64,000 nt of DNA from Bacteroidales bacterium (GTDB lineage Bacteria > Bacteroidota > Bacteroidia > Bacteroidales > UBA932). Location: assembly GCA_045638645.1 (NCBI GenBank), contig JAZUBU010000015.1:121646-185645 (forward strand), read 5' to 3'. A program made the position numbers and the translations under genes. Positions 4,223-64,000 of this stretch are shown piece by piece. The notes below the pieces were generated by a model. It did not search any database. It saw nothing but the letters and a program-made list of their open reading frames with translations, and was not told the origin of the DNA. Within the stretch, counting starts at the first letter, position 1. Each line of letters starts with the position of its first letter.

Positions 4223-5200
4223 ATGAAAAAATCAGCAAAAATCCGTTACAGACTCAACAGAGAGACACTGACTTACGAGGTGGTGGAAGTGTCCCAGCGG
4301 GAGCGCCGTCTTCGTCAGGTGTTGCTGTTTGTGCTGAGCTTTGTGGCTTTTTGCGGCTATTATTTCCTGTACACGCAGGTGCTGGGTTGGAAAACCCCGA
4401 AGCAGGTGCTGATCGAACGGCGTGCCTCCGAATGGCAGTCCAAACTGGATGAACTGACGGTCTCCCTGGAGAAGAACTATCAGATTCTGAACGAACTGGA
4501 ACGTCGTGACAACAAAGTATACCGACCCGTTTTCGGGATGGACGAGATCTCGGAAGAGGTGAGAAATGCAGGGATTGGAGGCGTGGACCGATATGGGTAC
4601 CTCGAGATGATGGACCCCAACGGCCGCTTGTCCAGTTATGTGGAGACTTTTGATATCCTCAGCAAAAAAGCTTATATCCAGTCCCATTCCTACGACGATG
4701 TGTTTCCCTTGGCGCAGACTGCTGACCAGATGTCGATGTGCATGCCGACCATTTGTCCCGTATCCCCGGACCAGGTTCGCCTGACGTCTTCGTATGGGTA
4801 CCGCAAGGACCCGAAGGATGGTAAAACCCGTTTTCATGACGGCCTGGATCTGGCAGGAAAGGTGGGCCTTCCGATATATGTGTCCGGAAATGCGACGGTC
4901 GTGGATGTGGGATTCGACTTTTTCGGTTATGGCCACTATGTGTTGGTGGATCACGGTTTTGGATACCGCTCCCGGTATGCACACTTGAGTAAAGTCTATG
5001 TGTCGGAGGGTCAGGTTCTCAAGCGGGGAGACCAACTGGGCGAGATGGGTAATTCCGGGAAGTCTACCGGTCCACATTTGCATTATGAGATCATTCACAA
5101 AGGCCGTCCGGTCAACCCCTATAAATTCTTTGATTTGGAACTTCCGGCGGAAGATTATCACTTGATTGTCCGTAGTTTGGGATCGGGGGGTAACGTATGA
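4223..5200 (+). CDS. M23 family metallopeptidase (membrane anchored, coiled-coil linker)
   Basis: 325 aa counted from MKKSAK. N-terminal TM segment. M23 motifs HDGLDLAG and GNSGKSTGPHLHYEI. Confidence 0.85.
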   Translation: MKKSAKIRYRLNRETLTYEVVEVSQRERRLRQVLLFVLSFVAFCGYYFLYTQVLGWKTPKQVLIERRASEWQSKLDELTVSLEKNYQILNELERRDNKVYRPVFGMDEISEEVRNAGIGGVDRYGYLEMMDPNGRLSSYVETFDILSKKAYIQSHSYDDVFPLAQTADQMSMCMPTICPVSPDQVRLTSSYGYRKDPKDGKTRFHDGLDLAGKVGLPIYVSGNATVVDVGFDFFGYGHYVLVDHGFGYRSRYAHLSKVYVSEGQVLKRGDQLGEMGNSGKSTGPHLHYEIIHKGRPVNPYKFFDLELPAEDYHLIVRSLGSGGNV

Positions 5201-6153
5201 AGCTGTTTCAATTCGACGGGAAGGAACTTTGGGTCAACAAAGAAGAATCGTTTCTGAAGCGGTGGGGCCGGTTGTTGCTCCGTCTTCTGCTTTGGAGTCT
5301 GCTCTTGTCCCTTCTGTATTATCTGATTTTTGCCTTGTTGTTTACCACGGACTCCCAACGGCAATTGTATCGGGAGAGCAAGGCCATTGAGGCAATGTAC
5401 GATGAACTGGCTGAAAGCAGTCGTCATCTGGACCGGGTGATCAAGGGTCTGCAGGAGAAAGACCAGGAATTGTACCGGAAAATTTTTGATGCGGATCCTC
5501 CGAGTTTTGACGGATACGGTCACGAAGGGGAGTTGACCTATGATCCGGATTCTGCCATGGCGGCAGGCCTGGTTCGGCAGACAGCCCAACGCTTGAAAGA
5601 GATGGAATACCAGGTGAGCTTGACGCAAGAGGCTGTCCGGCAGTTGGATTCAACGGTCCGTTCGGGGGCATACTCTATTCAGGAGATTCCTTCCTTGATT
5701 CCGGTAGCGGATTTCATTGTACAGCAGACCGGTGCGACGGTGGGTCGTCGGATCCATCCTTTTTACAAATCCTTGGTGGACCATACGGGTCTGGATCTGA
5801 TCACGGGGGTGGGGACGGATGTCTTTGCAACCGCTGACGGGGTTGTCCTGGAAGTGAGCAAATCGGAGAAGGGTCGGGGGAATTTTATCCGCTTGGAACA
5901 CAAGCACGGATACCAGACAACTTATTCCCACTTGGCCTCCATCGCCGTCCGAAAGGGGCAGCGGGTGACGCGTGGCCAGGTGATTGGCCGGGTGGGTTCC
6001 ACCGGAATGGCCTTTGCTCCCCATTTGCACTACGAGGTACTGCTGGACGGAGTCTATGTGGATCCCATTAATTATTTCTTTGTCGAATTGACGCCGGAAG
6101 AGTATCGGAATGTGTTGCGCATTGCGACCAATACCGGGCAGTCAATGGACTGA
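5197..6153 (+). CDS. M23 family metallopeptidase (paralog of upstream gene)
   Basis: 318 aa. The start overlaps the upstream stop (ATGA). N-terminal TM segment. M23 motifs HTGLDLIT and GSTGMAFAPHLHYEV. Confidence 0.85.
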   Translation: MKLFQFDGKELWVNKEESFLKRWGRLLLRLLLWSLLLSLLYYLIFALLFTTDSQRQLYRESKAIEAMYDELAESSRHLDRVIKGLQEKDQELYRKIFDADPPSFDGYGHEGELTYDPDSAMAAGLVRQTAQRLKEMEYQVSLTQEAVRQLDSTVRSGAYSIQEIPSLIPVADFIVQQTGATVGRRIHPFYKSLVDHTGLDLITGVGTDVFATADGVVLEVSKSEKGRGNFIRLEHKHGYQTTYSHLASIAVRKGQRVTRGQVIGRVGSTGMAFAPHLHYEVLLDGVYVDPINYFFVELTPEEYRNVLRIATNTGQSMD

Positions 6154-47541: not shown

Positions 47542-48837
47542 TTATGCCCGTCCCCGTAGTTTGCGGTGTGATCGGAAACCGTAAAGGGTTACGATGGCAA
47601 AACAGAGCAAGGGCAGGACGAAGGAAACATTGACGGCCGGGTGGTGCAGGATTTCTTGCTTGTCAATGATCAGTCCTTGCAGGGGAGGCATGACCGCACC
47701 GCCCACGATGGCCATCACCAGGAAAGCGGCTCCCAAGGAGGTATCTTGCTGCTCCACATTTTCCAAAGCGATGCCGTAGATGGTCGGAAACATCAGGGAC
47801 ATGAAAGCTGAAATGCCCACCAGGCAATACAGTCCCATGCGGCCGACAAGGGCAATCGTTCCCAACGAGCAGAGCATGGCCCCAAAGCCAAAGAGGGTCA
47901 AAAGCAACCGCGTGTTGAAGAACCGCATCAGGAAGGTACAAACGAAGCGTCCTCCTAAAAACAGGCACATGGCGATGATGTTGAAATTCTGGGCGGTGGC
48001 TTTGTTGATACCCAGGTTGTCGGCGTAGTGGATGATGTAAGTCCAGACCATGATTTGTGCTGCAACGTAGAATACTTGCGTCACAACGCCCTCGCGGTAA
48101 ACGCTGTTGTTCCACAGGCGTTTTAACGTATTTCTTGCCCTGTCTTGCCGGTTCGTATCGGTGGCGGCAGGCATTTTTTTCAAAGCAATGACCAGGAGAA
48201 TGATCAGGACAACGATGCCCAGAATCACATAGGGATCCCGGATGACCGCGAGGTCGTGCAGGCGGATGTCGGCTTTTTCTGCCTCACTGAGCGTGTGGAA
48301 GAAGGTTTCTCCCGCAGCGTTCCGCCGGTCCGACCAGAGCGAAGGAAGAACAATGGTGGAGGCTACCCCCATACCGAGCAGGGAACCCAACGGGTTGAAG
48401 GCTTGCGCCAGGTTGAGGCGTTGGGTAGCCGTTTCTTTGGAGCCCAACGAGAGAATGAACGGGTTTGCCGTGGTTTCCAGAAATGCCAGTCCAAAGGTGA
48501 GGATGTACAAAGACAGGCAGAAAAACAGGAAATTCTGCATCAAGGCTGCAGGAATGAACAGAAATGCCCCGATGGCATACAAACCCAGCCCCAGGAGGAT
48601 GCCGCTTTTATAATTGAATCGCCGTATAAACATCGCGGCGGGAATGGCCATGGTGGCGTAGCCTCCGTAGAAAGCGAATTGTACCCACGAGGCCTCGAAG
48701 GTGGATAGTTCCATGATGGTTTGGAAGGCCGCCACCATCGGGTTGGTGATGTCGTTGGCAAAGCCCCAAAGTGCAAACAACGAGGTGATGAGGATGAAGG
48801 TAATCAGGTATTTCTTTTCAACCAGTCTGTTTTTCAT
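47542..48837 (-). CDS. fucP: L-fucose:H+ symporter (MFS)
   Basis: 431 aa. 12-TM MFS protein with the FucP-type N-terminus FILITSLFALWGFANDITNPMV. Last gene of the fuc operon. Confidence 0.85.
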   Translation of the reverse strand: MKNRLVEKKYLITFILITSLFALWGFANDITNPMVAAFQTIMELSTFEASWVQFAFYGGYATMAIPAAMFIRRFNYKSGILLGLGLYAIGAFLFIPAALMQNFLFFCLSLYILTFGLAFLETTANPFILSLGSKETATQRLNLAQAFNPLGSLLGMGVASTIVLPSLWSDRRNAAGETFFHTLSEAEKADIRLHDLAVIRDPYVILGIVVLIILLVIALKKMPAATDTNRQDRARNTLKRLWNNSVYREGVVTQVFYVAAQIMVWTYIIHYADNLGINKATAQNFNIIAMCLFLGGRFVCTFLMRFFNTRLLLTLFGFGAMLCSLGTIALVGRMGLYCLVGISAFMSLMFPTIYGIALENVEQQDTSLGAAFLVMAIVGGAVMPPLQGLIIDKQEILHHPAVNVSFVLPLLCFAIVTLYGFRSHRKLRGRA

Positions 48838-50261
48838 GATTGGGCGGTTTTGGGAGTAAATAGTAGGAGATTGACGCTGTTTCTTACCACGTTCCGCAGG
48901 TCCTTCAAATCGGTCACTTCGCCGGCGGCCATGGCTTGTACCAGGATGTTGCCCATGGCGGTTGCCTCAACAGGGCCGGCCGAAACCGGGAGGTTCAGGG
49001 CATCTGCGGTGAGTTGGTTGAGCAGGGTGTTTTGTGAACCGCCTCCGATGATGTGCAACCGGCGGGGAGGATCGGGTAGAATGGATTTTAACCCCTCAAC
49101 GGCTTCTTTGTATTGGCTGGCCAGAGATTCCAGGACACATCGGGTCATCTCGGCCGGGGTATTCGGTTCCGGTTGTCCGGATTGCTGGCAGTAATCCCGG
49201 ATGGCTGTTTCCATGGATGTCGGATTCATGAAAGCCGGGTCCGTTACGGGAATTCTGCAACGGACTTCGGCCGCTGCAGCTGCGGGAATCAAGGTGTCGA
49301 AATGTTGTTCTTCCCCGCGTTCTTTCCATTCTTCCATCAGGCGTTGTAAAATCCACAATCCGGTGATGTTTTGCAAGAAACGGATGCCTCCTCTCACGGC
49401 CCCTTCGTTGGTGAATCCTGCCTGACGGGCCTCTTCGGTAAGGATCGGCTCGGGTAATTCAACCCCCAAAAGGGACCAGGTTCCGGAACTGAGGAAGGTA
49501 ACGGGACCGTCTTCTGTCGTAGCAGGGACGGCTGCCAGGGCAGAGGCGGTATCGTGAGAACCTACGGCAATCACGGGGATGGGACCCAGTCCTGTTTCTT
49601 CGGCGATTTCCGGTCGCAGGAATCCTCGTACAGTTCCGGGCATAACAATCTCTCCAAAGAGGTGCTCCGGCAGTTCCAGGGTCCGGATGGTTTCCCAGGA
49701 CCAGTTCCGTTTGCGGGCATCCAGGAGCTCGGAGGTGGAGGCGATGCTGTATTCGTTGTTTGCGTTACCGGTGAGGAAGTAGCTGAACAGGTCCGGCATG
49801 AACAGCAGCCGATGGGCCGCTTCCAACTGGGCGCTCCCTTTCATGCTGAACAACTGAGACAAGGTGTTGATTTCCATGACTTGGATGCCGGTCGTGGCGT
49901 AGTGGGCCTGCGGATCGAGGATCGTGGCCACTTTCTCTGGAATTCCGGCAGTCCGGTTGTCCCGGTAGCATACGGGATTGCCCAACAACTTGCCGTCCCG
50001 GTCGATGAGTCCGAAATCAACCCCCCATGTATCTACTGCCAGACTGGCTACGGGGTAGCCCAGGGCTTTGGCCTTCTTGAGTCCGTTGACCAATTCATCA
50101 AAGAGTGCCGGGAAATCCCAGTAGAGGGTGTCTCCCAGTTGGATCTGCCGGTTACCGAAACGGTGAATTTCTTTCATGTGGAGGTGGCCGTTTTCCAGCC
50201 ACCCCGCCATGATGCGTCCGCTACCACCGCCAAAATCGGCGGCAAGATATACTTTGTCCAT
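48834..50261 (-). CDS. fucK: FGGY-family kinase (rhamnulokinase-like; L-fuculokinase by context)
   Basis: 475 aa. Contains LAADFGGGSGRIMAG and the C-terminal IIGGGSQNTLLNQLTADA. It sits between fucA and fucP, the same order as in the Bacteroides fucIAKP operon. Confidence 0.8.
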   Translation of the reverse strand: MDKVYLAADFGGGSGRIMAGWLENGHLHMKEIHRFGNRQIQLGDTLYWDFPALFDELVNGLKKAKALGYPVASLAVDTWGVDFGLIDRDGKLLGNPVCYRDNRTAGIPEKVATILDPQAHYATTGIQVMEINTLSQLFSMKGSAQLEAAHRLLFMPDLFSYFLTGNANNEYSIASTSELLDARKRNWSWETIRTLELPEHLFGEIVMPGTVRGFLRPEIAEETGLGPIPVIAVGSHDTASALAAVPATTEDGPVTFLSSGTWSLLGVELPEPILTEEARQAGFTNEGAVRGGIRFLQNITGLWILQRLMEEWKERGEEQHFDTLIPAAAAAEVRCRIPVTDPAFMNPTSMETAIRDYCQQSGQPEPNTPAEMTRCVLESLASQYKEAVEGLKSILPDPPRRLHIIGGGSQNTLLNQLTADALNLPVSAGPVEATAMGNILVQAMAAGEVTDLKDLRNVVRNSVNLLLFTPKTAQS

Positions 50262-50278
50262 GGGGCTTCTTGATCAAT

Positions 50279-50923
50279 TTACTTGAGGGGTGTTTTCTTG
50301 CCAAGGACGTAGATGTCCAACTCTTCAATCTCTTTTGGGGTGAGGACGGTATAATTTCCACCGCTTTGGATGATGATTCTGCAAGCCATCTCAAAGAACA
50401 TGGCCCGTTCAAAGGCCTGGTCAAAATCTTTTCCGCAGACTACCTGGCCGTGGTTGGTCAGCAGAATCGAGTTGTGTTCCTGCATGGCTTCGACGACGGC
50501 GGAAGCCAATTCCGCAGATCCCGGACGGAGGTAGGGAATCACCGGAATTTCACGTCCTACATGACAAGGAACCTCAGCCGTTACATTGAAGTTACCAGGC
50601 TTCTCTTTCATGCAGGAAACGGCTGTGGCATAGGGAGATTGGAAATGAAGTACAACGTTCACATCGGGACGGTTGCGCAGCACGCCCAGGTGAAAACCAC
50701 TTTCCATAGAGGGCTTTACCCCGTTGAGTACTTCTCCCGTAGCGACAAGGCAACGGGAGATCTTCTCTTTTTGGATGGTCGGAACCCACGAACCGGTACC
50801 GGAAATCAGCGCCTCCTCTCCGATTCGCCACGACAGATTGCCACTGCTGCAGACGGTCAATCCGGCATCCCCGACACGGTGTGCCTGGCGGATGAATTCT
50901 TCAAAATGCAGATGGGTGATCAT
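50279..50923 (-). CDS. fucA: class II aldolase (L-fuculose-phosphate aldolase by context)
   Basis: 214 aa. Class II aldolase/adducin motifs GNLSWR and HFQSPYATA. Confidence 0.8.
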   Translation of the reverse strand: MITHLHFEEFIRQAHRVGDAGLTVCSSGNLSWRIGEEALISGTGSWVPTIQKEKISRCLVATGEVLNGVKPSMESGFHLGVLRNRPDVNVVLHFQSPYATAVSCMKEKPGNFNVTAEVPCHVGREIPVIPYLRPGSAELASAVVEAMQEHNSILLTNHGQVVCGKDFDQAFERAMFFEMACRIIIQSGGNYTVLTPKEIEELDIYVLGKKTPLK

Positions 50924-50929
50924 AGGGTT

Positions 50930-52705
50930 CTATTTGTAGATGGGTCCATAATTTTGGCAGGCACGGAAGTCGGCACCTTCTTTGTCCATACCGAATGCAT
51001 TCCATGCAGCCGGACGGAAAATCTTTTCTTCCGGAACGTTGTGCATGCAAACCGGGATACGGAGCATGGAGGCCAGGGTAATCAGGTCGGCTCCGATGTG
51101 GCCGTAACTGATGGCACCGTGGTTGGCACCCCAGTTGTTCATGACTGAATACACGTCTTTGAAGGGTGCTTTGGTCGCATCAAGACGGGGTACAAACCAA
51201 GTCGTCGGCCAGGTAGGGTCGGTACGCATGTTGAGAACCTGGTGGATTTCCGGATCAATGTCTGCAGTCCAACCTTCGGCAATCTGCAGCACCGGTCCCA
51301 GTCCTTTGATCAGATTCAACCGGCTCATGGTCACGGGCATGCCTCCTTTGGAGAGGAAGTTGCTGGAGAACCCGCCGCCGCGGAAGTAGTCGCGGTCTGC
51401 CGGCATCCAGTTCGTGTTTTTCAAACATCCTTCCACATCGGCAGGGGTCATCTCCCATGCTGGTTTCATGCAAGGTTCGCCGGCTGCATTGGTGCTGGCT
51501 CCGGTTGCATCCAGGGTTGTGGCTCCGGAGTTGATCAAGTGAATCATTCCGCCGGCAGCCAGGCCGCTGAGTTCTTTGCCGGTCACCCGTTTTACCGCTT
51601 CGGGGCTCCAGTAGGTGCGTACATCCGAGAACATCTGTCCGCAACCGGTGAGCAGTTTTCCGAAGAGCATGGCGACACCGTTGCAGGCATCGTTTTCAGT
51701 AGCCAATACATACGCTTCCCGGATACCGTTCCAGTCAAAGGTGCTGCACAACAAGGCTTCGGTAAAGTCTCCGTTCGGTTTCCAGTCGGTCCATTGGCGT
51801 TGTCCTTGGAATCCGGCAGCAATGGCATTGTGGCCAATGGCTTCTTCTTTGAATCCCAATTCGCGCAGGCGCGGGTTGCCGGTCATCAGATCGCGTACAA
51901 TCAGGGTCATTTTTACAACAAATTCCCAATCGGCATCTTTTCCTTTGCGGTCCTTTTGTTTTTCAGGACGGTTCTTGTCCCAACCTTCGTTGACTTTGCA
52001 GTAGGTTTCGGTCCAGGCCATGGCTTTTTCGTATTCTTCGTGATCGTAGATGCCTTCGTCCATCCGGCGAAGGATTTCGGTTTCATCGACGCTTTCGTTG
52101 CGCATGCCGAGGTATTCCTGGAAGAAGTCCTGATCAACGATACTGCCTGCGATTCCCATGCATTGGCTACCGATGGACAGATAGCTTTCGCCCCGCATGG
52201 TGGCTACGGCCAAAGCGGCTCTGGCCCAGCGGAGGATTTTTTCTGCAACATCTTCGGGAATGCTGTTGTCGGTCAGATCCTGAACATCGTGACCGTAGAT
52301 GCCAAAGGCAGGAAGACCCTTTTGAGCATGGCCCGCCAGAACAGCCGCCAAGTACACGGCTCCGGGACGTTCGGTTCCATTGAATCCCCATACGGCTTTG
52401 GGCCAGTGCGGGTGCATGTCCATGGTTTCAGAACCATAGCACCAGCAGGAGGTGACCGAAATGGTAGCACCTACGCCTTCCCGTTCAAATTTGGCCTGAC
52501 ATGCAGCGGTTTCTGCTACCCGTCCGATGGTGCTGTCGGCGATGATACATTCGACCGGTGTTCCGTCGGCATGTTTGACATGGGTTGAAATCAATTCGGC
52601 AACAGCTTTTGCCAGATTCATGGTCTTTTCTTCAAGGCTTTCACGCACACCACCTTGACGGCCGTCAATGGTAGGACGGATACCAATTTTGGGATATTTG
52701 CTCAT
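50930..52705 (-). CDS. fucI: L-fucose isomerase
   Basis: 591 aa. Starts [25 protein letters not shown] and shows full-length FucI-type conservation. Confidence 0.95.
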
Positions 52706-52794
52706 GATGAATGTTATTTATAGTAATACAATATCGGTTTGGTAAAACATCGCAAGTTAATATATTTTGGAAAACAGCCCTAAAAAACGGGTTG

Positions 52795-52819
52795 AAATCT
52801 TCTGGGCAAAGGAAGATTT
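52795..52819. promoter_or_regulatory. inverted repeat AAATCTTC-N9-GAAGATTT upstream of fucI
   Basis: Perfect 8-bp arms, about 90-115 nt upstream of the fucI start at 52705. Confidence 0.4.
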
Positions 52820-52998
52820 TGCACTATGATGAAATACTCCTATCTTTACATCCGCAATTGGATTAACAAACCCGAAGACATATTTGTATCAGAAGGATGC
52901 AAGCCTGAAATTGACAAGTTTCTTGTCGGTTTCCGTGTTGTTGTATCCATAGGGTTGTGTCAAAAAATAGAAAAAACGTAAAAAATAATCTGATAACT

Positions 52999-55900
52999 AT
53001 GAAAAAAATGGTGTGCCGTGCACTTTGTGCGGCATGGCTTTGTTTAGCCGCCTGTTGCTTGTCTGTTTCGTGTGTGAACGATGAGTATGTGATTTCCGAA
53101 GACGACATCAATTTGGAAGTCAATGTGTTTCAGGATGGAGTGGTAATTCCTGTCGGAACGACCGCCCGCATGCAGTTGAAAGACCTGCTGGATCAGTTGG
53201 ACGAGAAATATCGTAAATATCTCGGGTCAGATTCGGAAGGTTTTTATTCCGTTTTCTACAAAGATTCTTTGGATTTTTCAGATTCCCTGGCAGCCTTGAA
53301 GGAAATGGTCCTGATTGAGGCCATTGATTTTTCGGAGGATTTTGCATTCAGTCTGGAGAATGTGGATGTTTCCGAGGTCAAGGTGGATGCCATCCACTAT
53401 GAATACGAGGAACGTTTGGCAGATTCGTTCTCTGCACCGGAACTCCCTTCGGTGGACGTGGCGGAGGGAATGGTCTATGCGCTGGGAATGGATCAGTACG
53501 GGCTTTCGGCCGAGGACCGCACGTTGGCGTTGGATTCCTTCCACTATGAAGATGCAGTGGTTTCTGTTCCGGAGGATTTGACGATTCCCTCTTACCTGTT
53601 GAGCGATACCGAGATTCCGTTGAGCCAGCTGGCTGAACTCCTCGGATCCGGTTTTGTTTTGGCGGATTCGTTCGAAGAGTCCACGGATGTGAACGTCCGG
53701 ATGATGTTGCCGGAAGGGATTACCCACGTTGAAGAGGTGACTTTGGCGGAAGAGGCCCGGATCCGTGTGAGCATTGGAATGAGCCGTTCGTTGTTCACCT
53801 CGGGTAGTGTCAATCCCCACATGGATTTTGATTTGACGGATTTGTTCGGTGAGCATATTCAGATGGATTTCGAAATGCCGGCTGCAGGTGGAGAGGTGGT
53901 GAAAGAGTATCCTGTGCACTCCTTCCTTTTCCGTGAGGAGGATTGGTCAGAGGATGCAAACGGATCCCTCATTTTGAACAAAGATCTGCATGTTGAGGTT
54001 TTGGGTCGTCCGGTTTACACCGATTTGAAGACGACCACCCGTCATTTGGATCAACTCATGCGAGCCGGCCAGACCATCAGCCCGATTGAGGTGCTGGTGG
54101 AATTCGTGGATTTTGAAGTAGAAAATGTTCGTGCCGGAATCAAGCCGGTAGAAGTAGAATACGAAGAGCAGCTGGACTTGAATTTAGGAGAGATTGTTTT
54201 GCCGGAAGGCGTAGCGGAGATTGATTACGTTGAATTCTCGCAGCAATCGGTCCTGGATTTCTCCGTTGCTGTCCAAAACCTTTCCAAATTGGAAGGACTG
54301 CAGGTGGAACTGGAAACCCTGGAAATTGAATTTCCGACCGGTATGCAGGTGCAAGGGGCTCGGGACAGTAAGTTGTCGTACACGGCCATTGATCTGGCTC
54401 AGGGTTTCGCCGGTTCCATCCGGGTGGAACGTTATGTGTTGCCGGAACCCGTTGATGGAACGATTGCCTTGGAAGGTCAGGTGGTTTTTCGAGCCAAGGC
54501 CCGTGCTGAGGGAAAGGTCAATACCGAGGATTTGCCTACTATCGAGGCGGACGATCTGAAACTGGAGGTCCATGTGGATGGTTCCTTGGAGGTGGATGAC
54601 TACAGCGCCTACATCGATGCCATTGAGTACCCGATCGAAGTTTCTGAGCATATGGAAGTGGAAGTACCGGAAGAACTCAAGGACCTGGAACGTGTACTCG
54701 TATATCCGCAGGGCGATCCGGTCATTGAAATCAACATCCAAATTCCGGAGACCGATTTGGAAATTGGTCCCATGAAAGAAGGCGTGATCATTAGCCTCCC
54801 GTCGATGTTGCAGTTGAAAGATGTGCCCCAAGCCTATCATTACGACCCCACCACCCATCGCATGACTTTCACCGACGAGATTCCTTCGGAGATCCGACTG
54901 CCCATTGACTGCCTGGTTCTGGAGCCTGTTCTGAAGGGAGAGGTCTATGTGATCGAGGGGGATATCAAAGTAGAAGGAACCGTGGGTGTTGCTGCTGGAG
55001 AGGTGCGTAGGGCCGATCTGGATGCCCTATTGGCCGATGATGCAACCATCCGCTTTGAGGCGAAGGTGCCGGAACTGCGTCCGGATGTGCTGGCCTTGGA
55101 TCAATATGTCAGCACCTTGGAACACGAAGAGGAAATCACCTTGCTGGAGCCGGGGCAATTGCCGGAAGAGGTCCTCTCTGTGGGTCGGATTGAATTGGAA
55201 GAGGTCTATGCCAACCTTACGCTGGATGCCTCTGCCTTGCCGGAACTTGGGGATGCTACCTTGACCTTGGACTTCAAGGTGGGCTTGCCGGAACTCCTGA
55301 TCCTGGAGGATGGAGTTCGGGATGAAGAAGGCTTCCTGCGTATTCACAGCACGTTGGATCAGGACGGAAAGATTGTGGTGGATCCCATTCATATTGTCGC
55401 GTTGGATCTTTCGGGTATCAATCTCCATGCGGAGGAAGCGTTGAAAGAGAAGGTGGTGGTGGAAGGAACCTTCCAGCTCTCGGATGCCTCCATTCAGGTT
55501 GAGGACTGGTTGAATCAGGAACATACGGTTTCTTTGGATGCTTCTATCCAGGGAAGTGGCGAAGATCGTACCATTACCATTTCGAAATTGACGGGACGGG
55601 TGGATTACCAAATGGATACGCTGACCCAATCGGTGGATCTGACATCCTTGACTTCAAAACTCGAAACCGAGAACATGGAGGCCATTCTTGATCTGGAACA
55701 CGTCCATCTGACCGTGGATCTGGAAACTAATTTGGGCGTATCGGCCATCGCGAAGGCGGAAATCGTACCGTATCGTCATGGAGAGGCAGGTGAAGCCGTG
55801 GTGGTGGACCTTCGCGTAGAAGGAGCCGAATCGGCAGACCAACCGAAGCATACCCGTTTCTGGTTGGGCCAAGGCTGCTGTCCGGAAGGATATCAATTTG

Positions 55901-56493
55901 TGCAAATCCCCATCCTGGATATGATTCGCAATACTCCCGACAGCTTGTGTGTGCAAATCAGTGCCGGAACCGATGCTTCATCGGATATCGTGATTGAACC
56001 CAAGGCCGATTACATCCTGCGAGGCGAGTGTGCCCTGGAAGTGCCCCTGCAGTTGGGAGAGGACTTCCGTTTTGAATTCTGCGATACCTTGACGGGAATT
56101 CCGGCGATGATCAGTACCATCCTGCGTGCGGGCAGTCTGTCTTTGATCGGTCAGGTAGAGAGCAGTTTGCCGCTGAACCTCGATCTGTCCGTGACCTTGC
56201 TGGATGAGCACAATGAAATCATTGAACTGGCAGAAAATTCAGGTTGTCAATTCATTCAGGGGGGTAATGGAAAGGATGTGACGGTGACAGACTTGAACTT
56301 CCTGTTGGCGATCGGACAGGGCCAGCAGATTCCGGACATTGCTGCCGTGAAGTTGAATTTCGTGGCGACCTCAACAAGTCCCAGTGCTCCGCTGAACGAA
56401 GAAACGAGCATTCGGGCGGTACTGCAGGCTTTGGTGCCGGAAGGTATCCATGTGGATTTAAGAGATTTTATGATCGAAGAAGAGGAGGAGTAA
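52999..56493 (+). CDS. giant acidic hypothetical lipoprotein (predicted surface exposed)
   Basis: 1164 aa from ATG 52999. Signal peptide and lipobox CLSVS|C followed by VNDEYVISEDD. E/D/V/L-rich with beta-strand-like periodicity. Ends in EEEEE. No recognisable domain. Confidence 0.7.
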   Translation: MKKMVCRALCAAWLCLAACCLSVSCVNDEYVISEDDINLEVNVFQDGVVIPVGTTARMQLKDLLDQLDEKYRKYLGSDSEGFYSVFYKDSLDFSDSLAALKEMVLIEAIDFSEDFAFSLENVDVSEVKVDAIHYEYEERLADSFSAPELPSVDVAEGMVYALGMDQYGLSAEDRTLALDSFHYEDAVVSVPEDLTIPSYLLSDTEIPLSQLAELLGSGFVLADSFEESTDVNVRMMLPEGITHVEEVTLAEEARIRVSIGMSRSLFTSGSVNPHMDFDLTDLFGEHIQMDFEMPAAGGEVVKEYPVHSFLFREEDWSEDANGSLILNKDLHVEVLGRPVYTDLKTTTRHLDQLMRAGQTISPIEVLVEFVDFEVENVRAGIKPVEVEYEEQLDLNLGEIVLPEGVAEIDYVEFSQQSVLDFSVAVQNLSKLEGLQVELETLEIEFPTGMQVQGARDSKLSYTAIDLAQGFAGSIRVERYVLPEPVDGTIALEGQVVFRAKARAEGKVNTEDLPTIEADDLKLEVHVDGSLEVDDYSAYIDAIEYPIEVSEHMEVEVPEELKDLERVLVYPQGDPVIEINIQIPETDLEIGPMKEGVIISLPSMLQLKDVPQAYHYDPTTHRMTFTDEIPSEIRLPIDCLVLEPVLKGEVYVIEGDIKVEGTVGVAAGEVRRADLDALLADDATIRFEAKVPELRPDVLALDQYVSTLEHEEEITLLEPGQLPEEVLSVGRIELEEVYANLTLDASALPELGDATLTLDFKVGLPELLILEDGVRDEEGFLRIHSTLDQDGKIVVDPIHIVALDLSGINLHAEEALKEKVVVEGTFQLSDASIQVEDWLNQEHTVSLDASIQGSGEDRTITISKLTGRVDYQMDTLTQSVDLTSLTSKLETENMEAILDLEHVHLTVDLETNLGVSAIAKAEIVPYRHGEAGEAVVVDLRVEGAESADQPKHTRFWLGQGCCPEGYQFVQIPILDMIRNTPDSLCVQISAGTDASSDIVIEPKADYILRGECALEVPLQLGEDFRFEFCDTLTGIPAMISTILRAGSLSLIGQVESSLPLNLDLSVTLLDEHNEIIELAENSGCQFIQGGNGKDVTVTDLNFLLAIGQGQQIPDIAAVKLNFVATSTSPSAPLNEETSIRAVLQALVPEGIHVDLRDFMIEEEEE

Positions 56494-56497
56494 TCAG

Positions 56498-57943
56498 ATG
56501 AGAAAAATTATTGTTGTTGTGTTGGCAGCGATGTTCCTGCTGCCGTTCACCGGAGCCGCTCAAGCATTGAAAGGCAGTTATTTCTTGGACAATTCTGCCC
56601 AAAGAAACCAAATGAACCCGGCTTTTGCTCCAAGAACGAATTATGTGATGATCCCGGCTGTTGGCGACTTCGGGCTGGGTCTGCTGTCGAATCTGGATAT
56701 TTCGACTTTCCTGTATCCGATGGACGGTCAGCTGGCAACATTTCTGCACCCCTCGGTGACGGTGGAACAGTTCGATCGGGCGTTGGCTAAACATCCCCAT
56801 TTGGATGCAGAGTTCGGAACGAACTTGGTGAATTTTGGTTTTTATACCCAGCAGGGATCGTTCTGGACTTTTGACCTTTCGCTCCGTACCGGACTGGATG
56901 TGGACCTCCCCCGGGATTTGTTCATGTTCATGAAGAAAGGTACCGGCCTGGACGCGGAGACGTTCAACATTGCCAACATCAATGCCTATGCTACGGCTGC
57001 GGTAACCGCTTCGTTGGGTTATTCCCGGAAGATCGGTGAGTCGTTGCGTGTGGGAGCACGTGTCCGTTTCATTGCTCCCGTTGCGTATGCCGAACTGAAC
57101 CTGGACAACGTCCGGCTGATGACGGGAAAAGAAAAGTGGGAAGTGAAGACCGATGGTTCTCTCCATGCAGTCATGCACGGGTTGGATATTTCCATGCCTG
57201 AAAATGGATACATGCCGGATATCCGTTTTGATCTGAATCGGCTCATGGAAAACAAGGTCCTGGCCGGTTATGGAGGATCCATTGACTTGGGTGTTGAGTG
57301 GAAGCTCAACATCGGTAGTCTCTTCGATGGTCTGTCCGTTTCTGCATCCGTGACCGATTTGGGCTGGATCCAATACAAAAAAGGGGCCCAACAAACCTTT
57401 GCTACCCAAGGTAGTTTTGTCTGGGATGGATTCCAGGATGTGGACCAGCATTTTGATTTCAATGGAGCCTTGGACGAAGTCCTGGATGATGCAAAAGCCT
57501 TGATGAATATTGAGAAAAAAGAAGATGCGGAACAGTTGGTCCGTTCAACCATGCCGCGCGTGTATGCCGGGGTGGAAGTGCCTTTCTGTTGGGACCGCAT
57601 GAGTGCCGGTCTGCTCTATTCCGGTCGGTTCAGCCACAGCTATTACAGACAGGAGTTGACAGCTTCCTATAATTTGAAGGCTTTCCGTTGGTTGTCCTTG
57701 GGGGTAAACTATTCGTTCCTGAACACGGCCAAGACCATCGGATGGATTCTGGAAGTGACACCGAAAGCCGGGATGAACTTTTTCATCGGGGGAGACTATC
57801 TGCCGACGGAATGGGCATCGGCCCCGATCCTGGACAGTTTGATCACCATGCCGGACTTCCTGGTTCAGAAAGGACATGCTCATCCTTATTTGCCCATGTC
57901 CTACCGGTTTAACCTGCATTTCGGGATGTCGGTTGCTTTCTAA
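56498..57943 (+). CDS. hypothetical outer-membrane beta-barrel protein
   Basis: 481 aa. Starts 4 nt after the upstream stop. Signal peptide ending FTGAAQA. N-proximal NQMNPAFA motif, alternating amphipathic strands and an aromatic C-terminus HFGMSVAF. Confidence 0.65.
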   Translation: MRKIIVVVLAAMFLLPFTGAAQALKGSYFLDNSAQRNQMNPAFAPRTNYVMIPAVGDFGLGLLSNLDISTFLYPMDGQLATFLHPSVTVEQFDRALAKHPHLDAEFGTNLVNFGFYTQQGSFWTFDLSLRTGLDVDLPRDLFMFMKKGTGLDAETFNIANINAYATAAVTASLGYSRKIGESLRVGARVRFIAPVAYAELNLDNVRLMTGKEKWEVKTDGSLHAVMHGLDISMPENGYMPDIRFDLNRLMENKVLAGYGGSIDLGVEWKLNIGSLFDGLSVSASVTDLGWIQYKKGAQQTFATQGSFVWDGFQDVDQHFDFNGALDEVLDDAKALMNIEKKEDAEQLVRSTMPRVYAGVEVPFCWDRMSAGLLYSGRFSHSYYRQELTASYNLKAFRWLSLGVNYSFLNTAKTIGWILEVTPKAGMNFFIGGDYLPTEWASAPILDSLITMPDFLVQKGHAHPYLPMSYRFNLHFGMSVAF

Positions 57944-57984: not shown

Positions 57985-58017
57985 AAAGGGGATGACGATT
58001 GCGTGATCCCCTTTTTT
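57985..58017. terminator. terminator between the convergent beta-barrel gene and rmuC
   Basis: Stem AAAGGGGAT / ATCCCCTTT with a 12-nt loop, followed by a T-run on the plus strand. Confidence 0.7.
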
Positions 58018-58061: not shown

Positions 58062-59351
58062 TTATTCGGTGCAAGTGGGCAGTGCATTCTTGCCGGAGGG
58101 TGCCTGAATGCCGTGGTCGATGGCCCGAAGGGCCGCTTTGACAATGCTCTGTTTGCCTTCGACCAGCCGTTTGGAATTGGTCTTGAAGCCATCCAGAACC
58201 TGCTCCAGGTCTTTTTCAAGGACGGCATTGGCATGGCAGAAAATGCCGACCCGTTCGACCATATCCTGGGCGGCACAGACGATTTCTGCGATGTTTTCCA
58301 TTTGTTCTTTCTGAACCCAAGCGGTGCGGATGAGGCGAAGGAATGGAATGAGGGTCTCTTCGGTGGTGATGAGGACGTTCTGTTTGAAGGCTTTGGCAAA
58401 GATATCTTTGTCTTCCAGCTTGGCCAGTTGGTAGGCTCCGTAGTTGGGAATGAACATGATGATGTAGTCGAGCGCCCGACGGCCCACGACGTATTTCTGG
58501 TATTCCTTGCTGGTCAGCTCCTTGATGTGCCGTTCAATGGATTCCAGGTTTCGTGCGGAGGCTGCGGCCCGTTCTTCTTCTGTCTCGGCAGCGAAGTAGT
58601 CCGCCAAGGCGGTCAGGGATACTTTGGACTCGATGAGGATGTCGGTGTTGTCGGGAAAGTGCAGGGCAAAATCAGGACGCATGCTTTTGCCGGTTGCTTC
58701 GTTCACGATGCGGTTCCCTTTCTTGTCCCGCAGGTAGAATTCTGCGTGGTAGTCGTGACCTTCCCGCAAACCTTCTGCCTGAAGGATGTTTTCCAGGATG
58801 GTTTCTCCGAAGATGCCCTGTACCTTGCTTTGCCCTTTGAGGGCCTTGGCCAGGTCATCGGCGGTAGCGCCGATGTGGTCGGTCTGTTCTTTCAGGTGCC
58901 GGACCGTTTCTGCAAACTGGGTCCGGATGGAGGAGGACTCTTCGGTGTGCGTTTTTTTCTGGGCTTCGAAGGCCTCTTTCATGGCCCGGATATGCTGGTC
59001 CAATCCTCCGGTAATTGTTTTGAGGGTTTCTGCCGCCTCTTTCTTCAGGGATTCTTCGCGGGCTTTGAGGGTTTTTTCGTTCTCCAAAGCAAGGGCCGTC
59101 CGGGCGGCCTCAATGGCTTTCGCATGGCTGGACTTCAGCTCGGCCAGCATGTGTTCGTATTGGTACCGCTCGTTGTCGCGTAAGGTCTCTGCGGTGCGTA
59201 GATCGGCCTCGCTCCGGATCAGAGAGGCTTCGCATTCGGCGAGTTGCCGTGTGAGTTGGTGGATTTCGTGGCTTTTCTGAGAGTTCTGTTTCCAGAGCAG
59301 AGCCGTGGCCAGGAGGGCGATGATGACAAGGACGATGAGAATGGTGTTCAT
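58062..59351 (-). CDS. rmuC: DNA recombination protein RmuC
   Basis: 429 aa. N-terminal TM helix, a long coiled coil, and the RmuC C-terminal nuclease-like domain (RPDFALHFPD...MFIPNYGAY). Confidence 0.9.
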   Translation of the reverse strand: MNTILIVLVIIALLATALLWKQNSQKSHEIHQLTRQLAECEASLIRSEADLRTAETLRDNERYQYEHMLAELKSSHAKAIEAARTALALENEKTLKAREESLKKEAAETLKTITGGLDQHIRAMKEAFEAQKKTHTEESSSIRTQFAETVRHLKEQTDHIGATADDLAKALKGQSKVQGIFGETILENILQAEGLREGHDYHAEFYLRDKKGNRIVNEATGKSMRPDFALHFPDNTDILIESKVSLTALADYFAAETEEERAAASARNLESIERHIKELTSKEYQKYVVGRRALDYIIMFIPNYGAYQLAKLEDKDIFAKAFKQNVLITTEETLIPFLRLIRTAWVQKEQMENIAEIVCAAQDMVERVGIFCHANAVLEKDLEQVLDGFKTNSKRLVEGKQSIVKAALRAIDHGIQAPSGKNALPTCTE

Positions 59352-59442: not shown

Positions 59443-60039
59443 ATGAAAACGATGAAGAAACTACTTTATTTGATGGTGGGTCTAGTCTTCGCAGCAGCTT
59501 GCGAGAAAGAACCCTATGAACAGGATCCGGATCACGAATACCTCGTCTATACTGAGCCGGCCGAGGATGCAGACTTTGCCTCGTTTGCAACTTTTTATCT
59601 GCCGGACAGTATCCTGGTGATGAGCAGTGCTCAGGAACCTTATTATTCCACTTCGTACTATGCGACCGCTCTTTTGGGCGAAGTCCGTGACAACTTGAAA
59701 CATTGCGGTTATGCGCAGGTGACAGACCGCTCCCAGGCAGACCTGGGGGTTCGCCTGACCTACCTGGAACGCATGGACCGCTATTTCCATTATTACGACA
59801 ATCCGTTCTGGTGGGCTGGATACCCCGGTTTCTGGACTCCCAGTTACCTGAGAACCGCCAATGCACTCGTTCTGGAACTGCTGGATCTTTCCACCGCGAC
59901 GGGCAGCCCGACCGTCTATCCGATTGCCTGGTCGGCCTATCTGGGTGGACCCGCCAGCTCGAGCCTTTATTACGATGTCCAACGGATGCAGGACGCCATT
60001 GACCAGGCGTTCGTCCAATCCCCTTATCTCGAACAATAA
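59443..60039 (+). CDS. DUF4136-like lipoprotein
   Basis: 198 aa. Lipobox FAAA|C followed by EKEPYEQD. The size and the DLGVRLTY pattern resemble DUF4136. By-eye assignment only. Confidence 0.55.
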   Translation: MKTMKKLLYLMVGLVFAAACEKEPYEQDPDHEYLVYTEPAEDADFASFATFYLPDSILVMSSAQEPYYSTSYYATALLGEVRDNLKHCGYAQVTDRSQADLGVRLTYLERMDRYFHYYDNPFWWAGYPGFWTPSYLRTANALVLELLDLSTATGSPTVYPIAWSAYLGGPASSSLYYDVQRMQDAIDQAFVQSPYLEQ

Positions 60040-60057
60040 TCTTTTACAACGAGTATC

Positions 60058-60669
60058 ATGAAAAAATATACATTACCCCTGTTGCTGCTGATGGGCGTGG
60101 CCCTCTCAGCTGGGGAAGCCAATGCCCAAGTAGGCAAGCGTACCTACATGAACCTGGGCTGGCAAATCAATGGAACCCTGTACAACGATTTTGTACAAAA
60201 TGTTCAAGGCTACGGTATCTATCTGCAGAGTGGCTACTACCTGAATCCCTGGATCGCCATCGGTACGTTCAGCCATTTCAGCAACAACGAAACCTACCTG
60301 GAAAAACAAACCTATCCGCTGCGGGATGGAGCGGCGCTGACCACCGATGTACAACGGAATTTGTATCAGAATGCCTTTGGCCTGTCCATGCGTATGCGTT
60401 TGTGGCCGTTGGAACTCCAGCCGTATGTGGAGGCCAAAGTGGGTGCAGAATATGCTTCGTATAGTACATATTTCTCCCATTACGTGACCCGGGAAACCGG
60501 ATGGGGCTTCTATGTCTCTCCGGAAATAGGTCTGATCTACTATCCTTTCACAGGCTCAGATACAGGTTTGCATCTGGCGATGTATTACAGCTATACAACG
60601 GATACGCAGGCTACGTTCAATCCCTGTGGTTTGAACAACTGGGGCTTCAAACTGGGTATGGTCTTTTAG
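60058..60669 (+). CDS. small outer-membrane beta-barrel (porin-family) protein
   Basis: 203 aa. Signal peptide ending EANAQ. Alternating aromatic strands. C-terminus WGFKLGMVF. Confidence 0.65.
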   Translation: MKKYTLPLLLLMGVALSAGEANAQVGKRTYMNLGWQINGTLYNDFVQNVQGYGIYLQSGYYLNPWIAIGTFSHFSNNETYLEKQTYPLRDGAALTTDVQRNLYQNAFGLSMRMRLWPLELQPYVEAKVGAEYASYSTYFSHYVTRETGWGFYVSPEIGLIYYPFTGSDTGLHLAMYYSYTTDTQATFNPCGLNNWGFKLGMVF

Positions 60670-61859: not shown

Positions 61860-61917
61860 GATGGGAAGCCGGCTTCGTTTTCTGTCACAAACAGCATCAG
61901 ACTACGATTCAAGAGGT

Positions 61918-62823
61918 ATGAAAAATAGATTCTTTTACCCCTTAGTCGCCTGGTTGGCGCTGTTGTTTGCCATTTCTTGTTCTGTCTTGCACAAAACTCA
62001 GATCGAGAGCGTCGGACAGTTGTGTGAGCGCGTCGATACCCTCAGTCGGTTTCCGGAAAAGGTTCTGGAGATCCTTTCCGAAAGCCGTCGGGAGCGCAGT
62101 CTTTATTTTACAGCCACCTTGCATTCGCCCGATTTGCGGGTGAACGAGTTGAATGGAATTGCGGATTTTCAGATCCGGGAAGAAAAGGCCGTTCAGAAGT
62201 ATCTCGCTTATTCGGAGGTGCTGGAACGTTATTTCCGTAATTTGAAAAGCCTTTGCGCTCCTACACGCTACGAACAATTCGGCGTGGAACTGCGAGGACT
62301 CGGCCGGCAGGTAGACTCCCTCATTCACCACTACAACCGCCTGGGCATGGGAATGGAATTGCCGGAAGGTTATGCCAAGTTGTCCGGCAAACTGCTCGGT
62401 CAGGGGGCTGAGACGTATGTGCGACGAAAACAGGCTGTGTCGGTTCGGGATTATGTTCAAATGGCGGATACCCTCGTCGGTATGTATTGTGACACCTTGG
62501 CCCGCCTTCTGTCTTCGGATCCGATGAAGGCCTGGGTGGAACACGAGAAAGCGGAATTGGCGGATGAATATGCAACCTATCTCCAACTCTGTTCTCCCAA
62601 GTCAGGACGGGAGGAGGATCGTGCTTACCTGAAGCTGCGTCGTAAGCTGCTTGATGCAGAGGCCTTGTTGCGTAAAGGAAAGACGGCTCTGACATCGCTG
62701 AAGAAGGCCCATCACAAGCTGGCTTTGTCATTGAACCAGCGTTCGGAAATCGATCAGGTGTACACCGAGATCGTGGAGTTCAATGCCCATGTGTCGGACC
62801 TGAAGGACCTGTTGGGCAGGTAG
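61918..62823 (+). CDS. hypothetical alpha-helical lipoprotein
   Basis: 301 aa from MKNRFF. Lipobox FAIS|C. Helix-rich, with no recognisable domain. The upstream part of the ORF-track call crosses the galM terminator and was trimmed. Confidence 0.5.
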   Translation: MKNRFFYPLVAWLALLFAISCSVLHKTQIESVGQLCERVDTLSRFPEKVLEILSESRRERSLYFTATLHSPDLRVNELNGIADFQIREEKAVQKYLAYSEVLERYFRNLKSLCAPTRYEQFGVELRGLGRQVDSLIHHYNRLGMGMELPEGYAKLSGKLLGQGAETYVRRKQAVSVRDYVQMADTLVGMYCDTLARLLSSDPMKAWVEHEKAELADEYATYLQLCSPKSGREEDRAYLKLRRKLLDAEALLRKGKTALTSLKKAHHKLALSLNQRSEIDQVYTEIVEFNAHVSDLKDLLGR

Positions 62824-63019: not shown

Positions 63020-64000
63020 TTAATTTTTTATATCAATCTCATCAATAAAGATGAATCCTTCGCCGCCAGCACCCAGGTGCCATTCCGGGATGGTACCGAA
63101 ATTCTTGGCGAATACCTTGATGTAACGGGCTTTCGGGGTGTTGCAACATTGGGTGTTGGCATCGCCTGTTGTGCAAGCTTTCCAACCCAGATCAATGACT
63201 TGCATTTCGTAATCCTTGATGTCCACTTGGTGGGTGTAGCGACCCAGGGGGGTGAAATTCACACCATCTTCCGAAATGGAGAATTCAACGTATGTCGGCA
63301 TCCAGATCCAGGAACGGACATCTTGCAGGAAGCCGGCCGTGATGGCAGTGACCGGTTGTACGCTTCCGATATCCACGATGGCTTCAAAATCGGTGCGTTG
63401 GAAGCCTTGCCAGCCGCCGGTGCGCCAATTGATGCGTCCGCGAACACCATCCACCAATCCCCGGTCTCCTCCCGCATTGTATTGCGGATTGTAATTGGAA
63501 AGGATTTGGATGCTGCGGTCGCTACGGAGTTTGGTTACGGTGGTCTCGGTTACAAAGCTGCGTTTGCCTTGCGGAGATATCGCGTAAGCGCGGAGAATAC
63601 AGGTTTGATCCACGACGAAGGGGCCGGTGTACCGTTTGTATTGCGGTTGCTCGCCCCGGTTCAGGATGAGGCTGTACCAGATTTCGTTCGTGGCATCGTA
63701 GGAACCGATGGATACGGAGGTCCGGTCGTCAAACATCGGGGTTTCAACCTCAAACCAGGGATTGCCCACCAGGTTGCTTTCGATGGCGGTATGTGGACGG
63801 TTTTCTGCTTCGATTCCCAAAGTGTAGTTGGGAGTCTTGCTGAGTTGGATCCGGAAATTACCGCCGTTGAGGATGTCTTGGCTGGTCAGGAACATCCGGC
63901 TGTGGGTCTGACCATTCAAGCGCATGCTGCCGATGTACGGGAAATTCAAAATGCCTTTTGCGGTACAGTCCGGTTGGTCGCAGAGGGTGTAGTCAGCTTC
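63020..64000 (-). CDS. glycoside hydrolase, C-terminal part (CHB_HEX_C-like plus F5/8 type C/discoidin-like domains; possibly GH20 hexosaminidase), 5' end outside window
   Basis: The frame stays open to the window edge; the ORF-track start at 63949 is only an internal TTG. YKRYTGPFVVDQTCILRAYAISPQG resembles the chitobiase/hexosaminidase C-terminal domain. The terminal WHLGAGGEGFIFIDEIDIK resembles discoidin-domain ends of Bacteroides glycosidases. Confidence 0.55.
   Translation of the reverse strand, partial: EADYTLCDQPDCTAKGILNFPYIGSMRLNGQTHSRMFLTSQDILNGGNFRIQLSKTPNYTLGIEAENRPHTAIESNLVGNPWFEVETPMFDDRTSVSIGSYDATNEIWYSLILNRGEQPQYKRYTGPFVVDQTCILRAYAISPQGKRSFVTETTVTKLRSDRSIQILSNYNPQYNAGGDRGLVDGVRGRINWRTGGWQGFQRTDFEAIVDIGSVQPVTAITAGFLQDVRSWIWMPTYVEFSISEDGVNFTPLGRYTHQVDIKDYEMQVIDLGWKACTTGDANTQCCNTPKARYIKVFAKNFGTIPEWHLGAGGEGFIFIDEIDIKN

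Follow-up and report, generated by a model that had tools for sequence, protein, structure and literature searches.

The stretch analysed here, called the window, comprises 64,000 nucleotides (nt) from a Bacteroidales bacterium (assembly GCA_045638645.1, contig JAZUBU010000015.1, positions 121,646 to 185,645 of the forward strand). The subject of this report is a pair of adjacent genes on its plus strand, which encode an acidic lipoprotein of 1164 amino acids (aa) and a 481-aa protein predicted to form an outer-membrane β-barrel. A first-pass annotation, made from the letters alone, had described them as a giant surface lipoprotein coupled to a dedicated barrel in a self-contained unit. Comparison with related loci supports, at the level of sequence, a dedicated, co-conserved and uncharacterised unit of two genes. 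The lipoprotein open reading frame (ORF) runs from a GTG codon at 52957 to 56493, and an ATG at 52999 gives the 1164-aa product; this Met was retained as the start because six homologues (46–95% identity) align from it. The TAA stop codon is followed by TCAG and then by the ATG of the barrel gene at 56498, which is the 4-nt spacing reported initially. Downstream of the barrel gene, the proposed terminator hairpin (AAAGGGGAUGACGAUUGCGUGAUCCCCUUUUUU) is GC-rich, with a U run after it. The 118-nt region around it folds with a z-score of -2.7 relative to shuffled sequences, in keeping with the original call, and a convergent rmuC gene ends at 58062. The GC content is 0.514 for the lipoprotein gene and 0.507 for the barrel gene, like the 0.506 of the window, and the line 54001–54060, earlier counted by hand, contains exactly 30 G+C. 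The coordinates of all features are collected in Table 1.

Table 1. Features of the lipoprotein–barrel locus, in window coordinates (AF2, AlphaFold2; HMM, hidden Markov model; hhalign, profile–profile comparison)
Feature	Position	Strand	Basis
Intergenic region between the divergent fucI and lipoprotein genes	52706..52998	+	promoter presumed in this region
Lipoprotein gene, product of 1164 aa, acidic and modular (N-module, four repeats and C-module)	52999..56493	+	ORF, homologue alignment, AF2
Signal peptide with lipobox, up to and including the lipid-anchor Cys25	52999..53073	+	conservation among 85 relatives
N-terminal module, aa 26–120, proposed barrel dock	53074..53358	+	family conservation
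Repeat R1, aa 205–350	53611..54048	+	hhalign against R4 and R2, 90.7–96.5% probability; module HMM matches
Repeat R2, aa 351–512	54049..54534	+	hhalign of R4 against residues 387–512, 98.4%, E 1e-14
Repeat R3, aa 513–674	54535..55020	+	hhalign, 95.7–97.8% probability
Repeat R4, aa 675–838	55021..55512	+	hhalign, module HMMs
C-terminal module, aa 867–1158, homologous to DUF4621 / BDI_1231 (PDB 4h3w)	55597..56472	+	profile, Foldseek
Gene of the 481-aa DUF5723 outer-membrane β-barrel	56498..57943	+	Pfam PF18990, AF2, Foldseek
Barrel signal peptide, aa 1–23, ending AQA	56498..56566	+	sequence; A21 and Q22 invariant in 41 homologues
Asn40-Pro41-Ala42 (NPA) ahead of the barrel strands, FadL-type hatch motif	56615..56623	+	invariant in 41 homologues
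Intrinsic-terminator-like hairpin with U tract, closing the two-gene unit	57985..58017	+	sequence, folding against shuffles

That the two genes form a unit is supported by gene order. HMMs of both families were run on the six-frame ORFs of 45 related loci from genomes and metagenomes, fetched through either protein. Six of them were set aside, the barrel being cut off at a contig end or starting within about 640 bases of one. In 38 of the 39 others, a lipoprotein-family ORF lies directly 5' of the barrel gene, in the same orientation and either overlapping it or separated by a few bases. The apparent exception, locus L044, has at this place (4224–5957) a divergent 577-aa lipoprotein, rich in Asn, Thr and Ser and not acidic, in which the HMMs recognise the N-module, one repeat and the C-module; the barrel there is 26% identical to that of the window. 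With L044 included, the pair is present in each of the 39 loci where the upstream DNA suffices. The pairing holds at barrels of only 26–32% identity to the window barrel (L040, L041, L042 and L045), and the same order was found in a locus fetched separately (L046), where a DUF5723 gene lies downstream of a much longer lipoprotein gene. The flanks vary by lineage: the window has fucose genes and rmuC, several relatives have radA and a peptidase S13 gene, and elsewhere there is a SusC/SusD locus (a polysaccharide utilisation locus) or other genes. Since the flanking genes differ in this way, it is the pair that is conserved rather than a larger block around it, and the self-contained unit of the first-pass annotation is borne out; a lack of co-conservation, the finding named there as fatal, was looked for in the related loci and the reverse was observed. 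The recurrence of the pair in every related locus examined, together with the conservation of the lipid-anchor cysteine, makes the observation more than a chance one.

The two proteins do not evolve at the same rate. Over 171 locus pairs, the lipoproteins are on average 36% identical and the barrels 59%; the barrel is the more conserved in 171 of 171 comparisons, and the two divergences are correlated (r = 0.68). This correlation is consistent with co-inheritance, and the faster divergence of the lipoprotein is as expected of an exposed protein relative to a buried one.

Sequence conservation likewise supports the first protein as a lipoprotein carrying the Bacteroidota export-signal signature. 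Its N-terminus reads MKKMVCRALCAAWLCLAACCLSVS up to Cys25, continues with VNDEYVISEDD, and the chain ends in EEEEE, all as first reported. In an alignment of 85 divergent family members, Cys25 is kept in 84, and of these 84, 83 have Ser, Ala or Gly at position -1. Two or more acidic residues at positions +1 to +6 is the criterion used for surface lipoproteins of Bacteroidota (PMC12578637). The earlier proposal of an acidic export signal agrees with this, the window protein having one D and one E in VNDEYV and belonging to the 71 of 84 relatives that have two or more; across the family, positions +3, +4 and +6 are mostly Asp or Glu. The mature protein is very acidic as a whole, with an isoelectric point of 4.1, 20% Asp+Glu versus 6% Lys+Arg and a net charge of -157. 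Acidity is typical of the family without being universal, given the L044 protein, and the EEEEE terminus, although present in the window protein, is not conserved across the family. Of note, a vicinal Cys-Cys pair in the sequence CCPEGY (aa 960–961, 55876–55881) is invariant in the close clade and unconserved in the wider family; it may be a vicinal disulfide or a metal site.

The lipoprotein belongs to a large family. An exhaustive HMMER search with the family profile retrieved 865 representatives at 50% clustering, of about 570 to 1280 aa, 271 of them with E up to 1e-30. A word-indexed protein search yielded 6–7 relatives, even with the 85-sequence profile; its candidate list seems to be saturated by the acidic composition of low complexity, and highly acidic proteins of this kind can pass for orphans in such a search. 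The names attached to the relatives in the source databases are ‘hypothetical protein’ throughout. The nearest relatives of the pair come from uncultured ‘Bacteroidales bacterium’ genomes of buffalo colon and roe deer rectum.

A modular architecture emerges from the profile comparisons. Comparing slices of the family alignment with each other by profile–profile methods reveals four tandem β repeats of about 160 aa, with probabilities of 91–99%, and module HMMs show that the family is built as an N-module, n repeats and a C-module. Members with one repeat measure 580–610 aa, those with three 930–980 aa, and those with four, such as the window lipoprotein, 1160–1280 aa; a 1817-aa member (L046, 463–5916) has at least seven repeat units, and a 458-aa DUF5723 gene lies 55 nt after it. 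R4 is the sole repeat retained in the ‘mini’ relatives of about 600 aa, and the N-module is present in every length variant. The word ‘giant’ used in the first-pass annotation is correct as to the 1164 aa; it describes only one length class of a family that spans about 330 to 1817 aa and zero to at least seven repeats, the lower end being discussed below. The AF2 model, calculated from the 85-member alignment, is almost entirely β, with a mean predicted local distance difference test score (pLDDT) of 85.3. Its predicted template modelling score (pTM) is 0.47, a low value expected because the protein is elongated and multi-domain. The block following directly on the lipid anchor (residues 21–60) is the most conserved of the family (2.0–2.2 bits), yet residues 23–33 are the least confident part of the mature monomer model, with pLDDT below 50. 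Segments that fold onto a partner typically show this combination.

Several other matches of the lipoprotein were considered and discarded. A Bactofilin match over residues 444–512, inside R2 (E 0.006, below the cut-off), was rejected as an artefact of composition or of β-strands, and Foldseek matches to viral models, which are of generic multi-domain β type with TM-scores below 0.1 and root-mean-square deviations of 37–96 Å, were rejected as uninformative. An AsmA/TamB-like lipid-bridge fold was also considered, given how long and amphipathic the strands are and that the repeats measure about 160 aa; no structure of this kind was present among the Foldseek PDB matches of the lipoprotein model. 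Single-sequence searches of both proteins against the PDB retrieved nothing, and NCBIfam gave no match for either at E up to 1.

The first-pass annotation had found no family for the lipoprotein. This does not hold for its C-terminal part; the barrel, too, belongs to a database family, DUF5723. The last 290 residues or so are demonstrably homologous to DUF4621: the 85-sequence family profile matches the PDB sequence 4h3w at E 3.9e-15 over profile positions 867–1151, Foldseek matches the lipoprotein model to the same structure at E 2e-11 with a TM-score of 0.58 normalised by the target, and the 4h3w sequence is Pfam DUF4621 (PF15414) at E 1e-234. The Pfam model itself does not match the window lipoprotein at E up to 1; one relative (P0270) matches it at E 0.0012, below the cut-off. 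The 4h3w entry is the ‘putative secreted protein’ BDI_1231 of Parabacteroides distasonis, and no function is known for this structure. The DUF4621 protein has only 330 aa and no repeats, and at its start it shares with the window family the short motif that comes after the lipid anchor (YDLS..., ...PLG); it looks like the zero-repeat form of this family.

The second protein is supported as an outer-membrane β-barrel by its family assignment and structural model, in agreement with the original prediction. The sequence marks on which this prediction was based (a signal peptide ending in FTGAAQA at residue 23 and followed by Leu, the NQMNPAFA motif and the HFGMSVAF terminus) are all present. The protein matches DUF5723 (PF18990) at E 1.2e-75, with 256 bits against a cut-off of 26.8, over the entire model (positions 1–376 of 376); all 41 aligned homologues match DUF5723 too. 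Its relatives form more than 120 clusters at 50–67% identity in gut and rumen metagenomes, among 499 matches. The AF2 model built with the 41 homologues has a pLDDT of 76 and a pTM of 0.73, and shows about 16 long antiparallel strands by DSSP; a published structural model of a Brachyspira DUF5723 member is also a 16-stranded barrel. A 35-residue N-terminal segment precedes the strands of the AF2 model. The NQMNPAFA stretch could be refined to the Asn-Pro-Ala of FadL-type channels, where this triplet lies in the N-terminal hatch and is conserved and functionally essential (PMC8407342): N40, P41 and A42 are invariant in 41 of 41 barrel homologues of 50–67% identity. Among the Foldseek matches of the barrel model, those with the best alignments come from the FadL family, at a probability of 1.0: FadL of Escherichia coli and of Pseudomonas aeruginosa, TodX, and BamG of the barrel assembly machinery (BAM) of Flavobacterium johnsoniae, Bacteroides thetaiotaomicron and Porphyromonas gingivalis. 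Several TonB-dependent receptors also reach a probability of 1.0, with poor alignments (TM 0.16–0.24). A DUF5723 protein of P. gingivalis (UniProt Q7MT24) has been detected in outer-membrane vesicles (PMC12937337, Table 1), in favour of an outer-membrane location. In this table, ordered by accession, it is listed beside Q7MT25, a protein bearing a type IX secretion system (T9SS) C-terminal domain. Omp28 was considered as a local partner of the P. gingivalis protein, from locus order. The searchable literature contains no functional study of DUF5723, the Brachyspira model and the P. gingivalis vesicle detection being the only reports. The pairing of DUF5723 with a lipoprotein, the link between DUF5723 and DUF4621 and the series of repeat numbers are all undescribed there.

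The reading that we favour, and consider probable, is that of a bicistronic operon for an outer-membrane complex in which the surface lipoprotein and the β-barrel are stable partners. The DUF5723 barrel would be the slowly evolving, membrane-embedded partner, distantly related in structure to FadL-type channels. Acylation at Cys25 would anchor the lipoprotein, its acidic export signal would cause it to be flipped to the cell surface, and the conserved 95 residues or so after the anchor would hold it on or beside the barrel. On this base would stand an acidic stalk, made of the four tandem all-β repeats (about 160 aa each) and displaying the DUF4621-type head domain away from the membrane, and the number of repeats, which is 0, 1, 3, 4 or at least 7 in the relatives, would set the length of the stalk. 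Repeat-number variation, extreme acidity and fast divergence fit an exposed stalk that holds a head at a set distance. Such a complex would most likely serve to capture or sense something far from the membrane, handing this to the FadL-like barrel or working jointly with the latter; in a plainer reading, the lipoprotein would be a surface spacer or adhesin anchored by the barrel. The identity of the two proteins, the modular build of the lipoprotein, the strict pairing of the genes and their unequal rates of evolution are shown by the analysis; we infer, for this complex, exposure at the surface, contact between lipoprotein and barrel, a rod shape and a ligand or transport function.

The closest worked-out precedent is BamG–BamH of the Bacteroidota BAM. 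There, BamG, a barrel of FadL type, binds the surface lipoprotein BamH by the N-terminal region of the latter, the lipid anchor of BamH being wedged against barrels; a paralogous pair, BamG2/BamH2 (Bt1785/Bt1786), forms a putative operon (PMC12611786, PMC12578637). Both systems pair a FadL-type or FadL-like barrel with a surface lipoprotein, and the best structural matches of the window barrel include BamG of three species. The differences are that BamG belongs to the FadL/Toluene_X sequence family and the window barrel does not, that BamH is unrelated in sequence to the window lipoprotein, that no BamA link is known for the window pair, and that the latter has the lipoprotein gene first and a repeat-built stalk of variable length. 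SusC/SusD and BtuB/BtuG share with it the adjacency of genes for a barrel and a surface lipoprotein, and stable complexes are known for them. Unlike these, the window barrel lacks a plug and a TonB-dependent receptor domain (no Pfam match to Plug or TonB_dep_Rec), its lipoprotein does not resemble SusD, the two genes stand in the opposite order and the unit lies outside a polysaccharide utilisation locus.

Some observations weigh against this favoured reading or limit how far it can be carried. The acidic export-signal rule is statistical and does not prove surface exposure. The TM-scores of the barrel to FadL-type structures are only 0.33–0.44, and its predicted model has 16 long strands by DSSP, versus 14 in FadL. 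Toluene_X (PF03349) matches neither the window barrel at E up to 1 nor the 41 homologues at E up to 10, and models for PorV or PorP/SprF in Pfam and NCBIfam do not match the barrel at E up to 1. The genes next to the pair give no hint of a substrate, and the searchable literature holds no tested function for any member of either family. In line with the missing sequence relationship, the barrel family profile matched none of the FadL, TodX or BamG chains among the PDB sequences. FadL itself has no known lipoprotein partner. The barrel is called FadL-like here, rather than a FadL family member, because no homologue matches Toluene_X: the likeness is in the predicted fold and in the hatch motif, a conserved Asn-Pro-Ala in a segment ahead of the strands being common to both. 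The check for a match to an already characterised system, which the first-pass annotation had named as contrary evidence, proved negative.

A more specific version of the favoured explanation is hydrophobic-molecule uptake, in which the barrel would be the channel and the lipoprotein a capturing lid or antenna, as SusD is for SusC or BtuG for BtuB. The retained Asn-Pro-Ala, essential for FadL gating (PMC8407342), hints that the barrel could conduct hydrophobic molecules, FadL and TodX are its best structural matches, and complexes of surface lipoproteins with transporters are ubiquitous in Bacteroidota (PMC12578637). We nevertheless regard this version as unlikely: BamG and PorV are FadL-like barrels with no transporter role, no genes of lipid or fatty-acid metabolism are linked to the pair in the loci examined, and a stalk of up to seven or more repeats would be an odd design for a lid. 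By analogy with BamG, the barrel may serve as a scaffold only, or it may help in the export of its partner.

This last idea has a stricter form, that of a dedicated exporter: the DUF5723 barrel would be a translocator, similar to Slam of Neisseria, which flips the neighbouring lipoprotein without remaining bound to it. Slam genes adjoin those of their lipoprotein substrates in Proteobacteria, as the barrel gene adjoins the lipoprotein gene here, and how surface lipoproteins are flipped in Bacteroidota is unresolved (PMC12578637). Strict gene pairing would suit such an exporter, and the conserved segment right after the lipid Cys could be a recognition signal. On the other side, neither the barrel nor its homologues match Slam/DUF560 or tetratricopeptide repeat models in Pfam, surface lipoproteins are produced by the hundreds in Bacteroidota without a private barrel, and the current assembly candidate is the phylum-specific BAM. 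A one-to-one stoichiometric operon, with genes overlapping or 4 nt apart, also fits a stable complex better than a translocator with no lasting partner, and we hold the exporter to be distinctly improbable.

The lipoprotein could also be part of a periplasmic structure, facing inward rather than outward. Fewer than two acidic residues are found at +1 to +6 in 13 of the 84 relatives, and the neighbours of the pair are housekeeping or cell-wall genes, for instance peptidase S13, in several lineages. Most members follow the export-signal rule, though, lengths of about 330 to 1817 aa are hard to square with a periplasm of fixed width, and the fast divergence of the lipoprotein relative to the barrel is typical of exposed proteins; an internal location has little to recommend it. 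In a T9SS accessory role, the barrel would anchor or shuttle the large protein as its cargo in the manner of PorV or PorP, systems in which a FadL-like or small barrel holds a large surface protein. This role could invoke the weak Foldseek match to the FadL-like PorV (chain 8gl6_F, probability 0.77) and the listing of Q7MT24 beside a protein with a T9SS C-terminal domain, but it was rejected as scarcely credible, the large protein having a lipobox and no C-terminal sorting domain of type A or type B (Pfam, NCBIfam) and the barrel having no PorV or PorP/SprF match and a TM-score to PorV of only 0.21–0.25.

Complexes of surface lipoproteins with barrels are the dominant outer-membrane design of Bacteroidota (PMC12578637). 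Those that have been studied are almost all TonB-dependent nutrient importers or BAM, and the module described here would represent a third, uncharacterised type. It joins two domains of unknown function, DUF5723 and DUF4621, in one system, and gives 4h3w, solved in 2012, a place as the putative head domain of a repeat-built stalk family. Being strictly co-inherited and surrounded by housekeeping genes, the pair is probably a standard part of the envelope in largely uncultured gut and rumen Bacteroidales lineages. It is a candidate phage receptor or host-facing antigen. As a compact two-gene system, well defined, widespread and experimentally tractable, it would lend itself to studying how a FadL-like barrel holds a lipoprotein. 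A bolder proposal, to which we give a low chance, is that DUF5723 barrels and DUF4621-related lipoproteins constitute an unrecognised, widespread surface organelle of Bacteroidales, with an adjustable acidic stalk (zero to at least seven repeats) reaching through the capsule, capturing hydrophobic molecules or contacting other membranes and feeding a FadL-type channel, or else that the barrel is a private lipoprotein flippase. Were the flippase part true, it would offer a first handle on the transfer of lipoproteins to the surface in Bacteroidota.

As regards the surroundings of the pair, the exact Bacteroides TAnnTTTG -7 motif was not found in the upstream intergenic region, where the nearest sequence is TATATTTT at 52761. 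Upstream phase variation or a riboswitch was considered and rejected, there being no inverted repeats suggestive of an invertible promoter and no Rfam match upstream of the lipoprotein gene. A phage or defence origin of the pair was also rejected, with no NCBIfam match and no match to either gene in PHROGs or PADLOC. A fucose utilisation cluster lies on the minus strand (47542–52705), divergent from the lipoprotein gene; it contains ORFs resembling an FGGY-type kinase and an aldolase, along with a major facilitator superfamily permease and L-fucose isomerase. Relatives of the pair have other neighbours, and the cluster is for this reason considered unrelated to the lipoprotein–barrel module. 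In five of the related loci (L001–L004 and L007), the pair adjoins radA, a peptidase S13 gene (D-Ala-D-Ala carboxypeptidase type) and an NAD-dependent epimerase gene, which are housekeeping or cell-envelope genes and do not make up a nutrient-utilisation locus. Further downstream in the window, two ORFs of about 300 aa, at 61909–62823 on the plus strand and 63020–63949 on the minus strand, have no Pfam match. A second, small pair of lipoprotein and barrel genes is located just downstream of the first one, at 59443–60669 on the plus strand: it consists of a 198-aa DUF4136 lipoprotein (signal peptide ...VFAAAC, then EKEPYEQD) and, 18 nt on, of a 203-aa OMP_b-brl protein that ends in ...KLGMVF.

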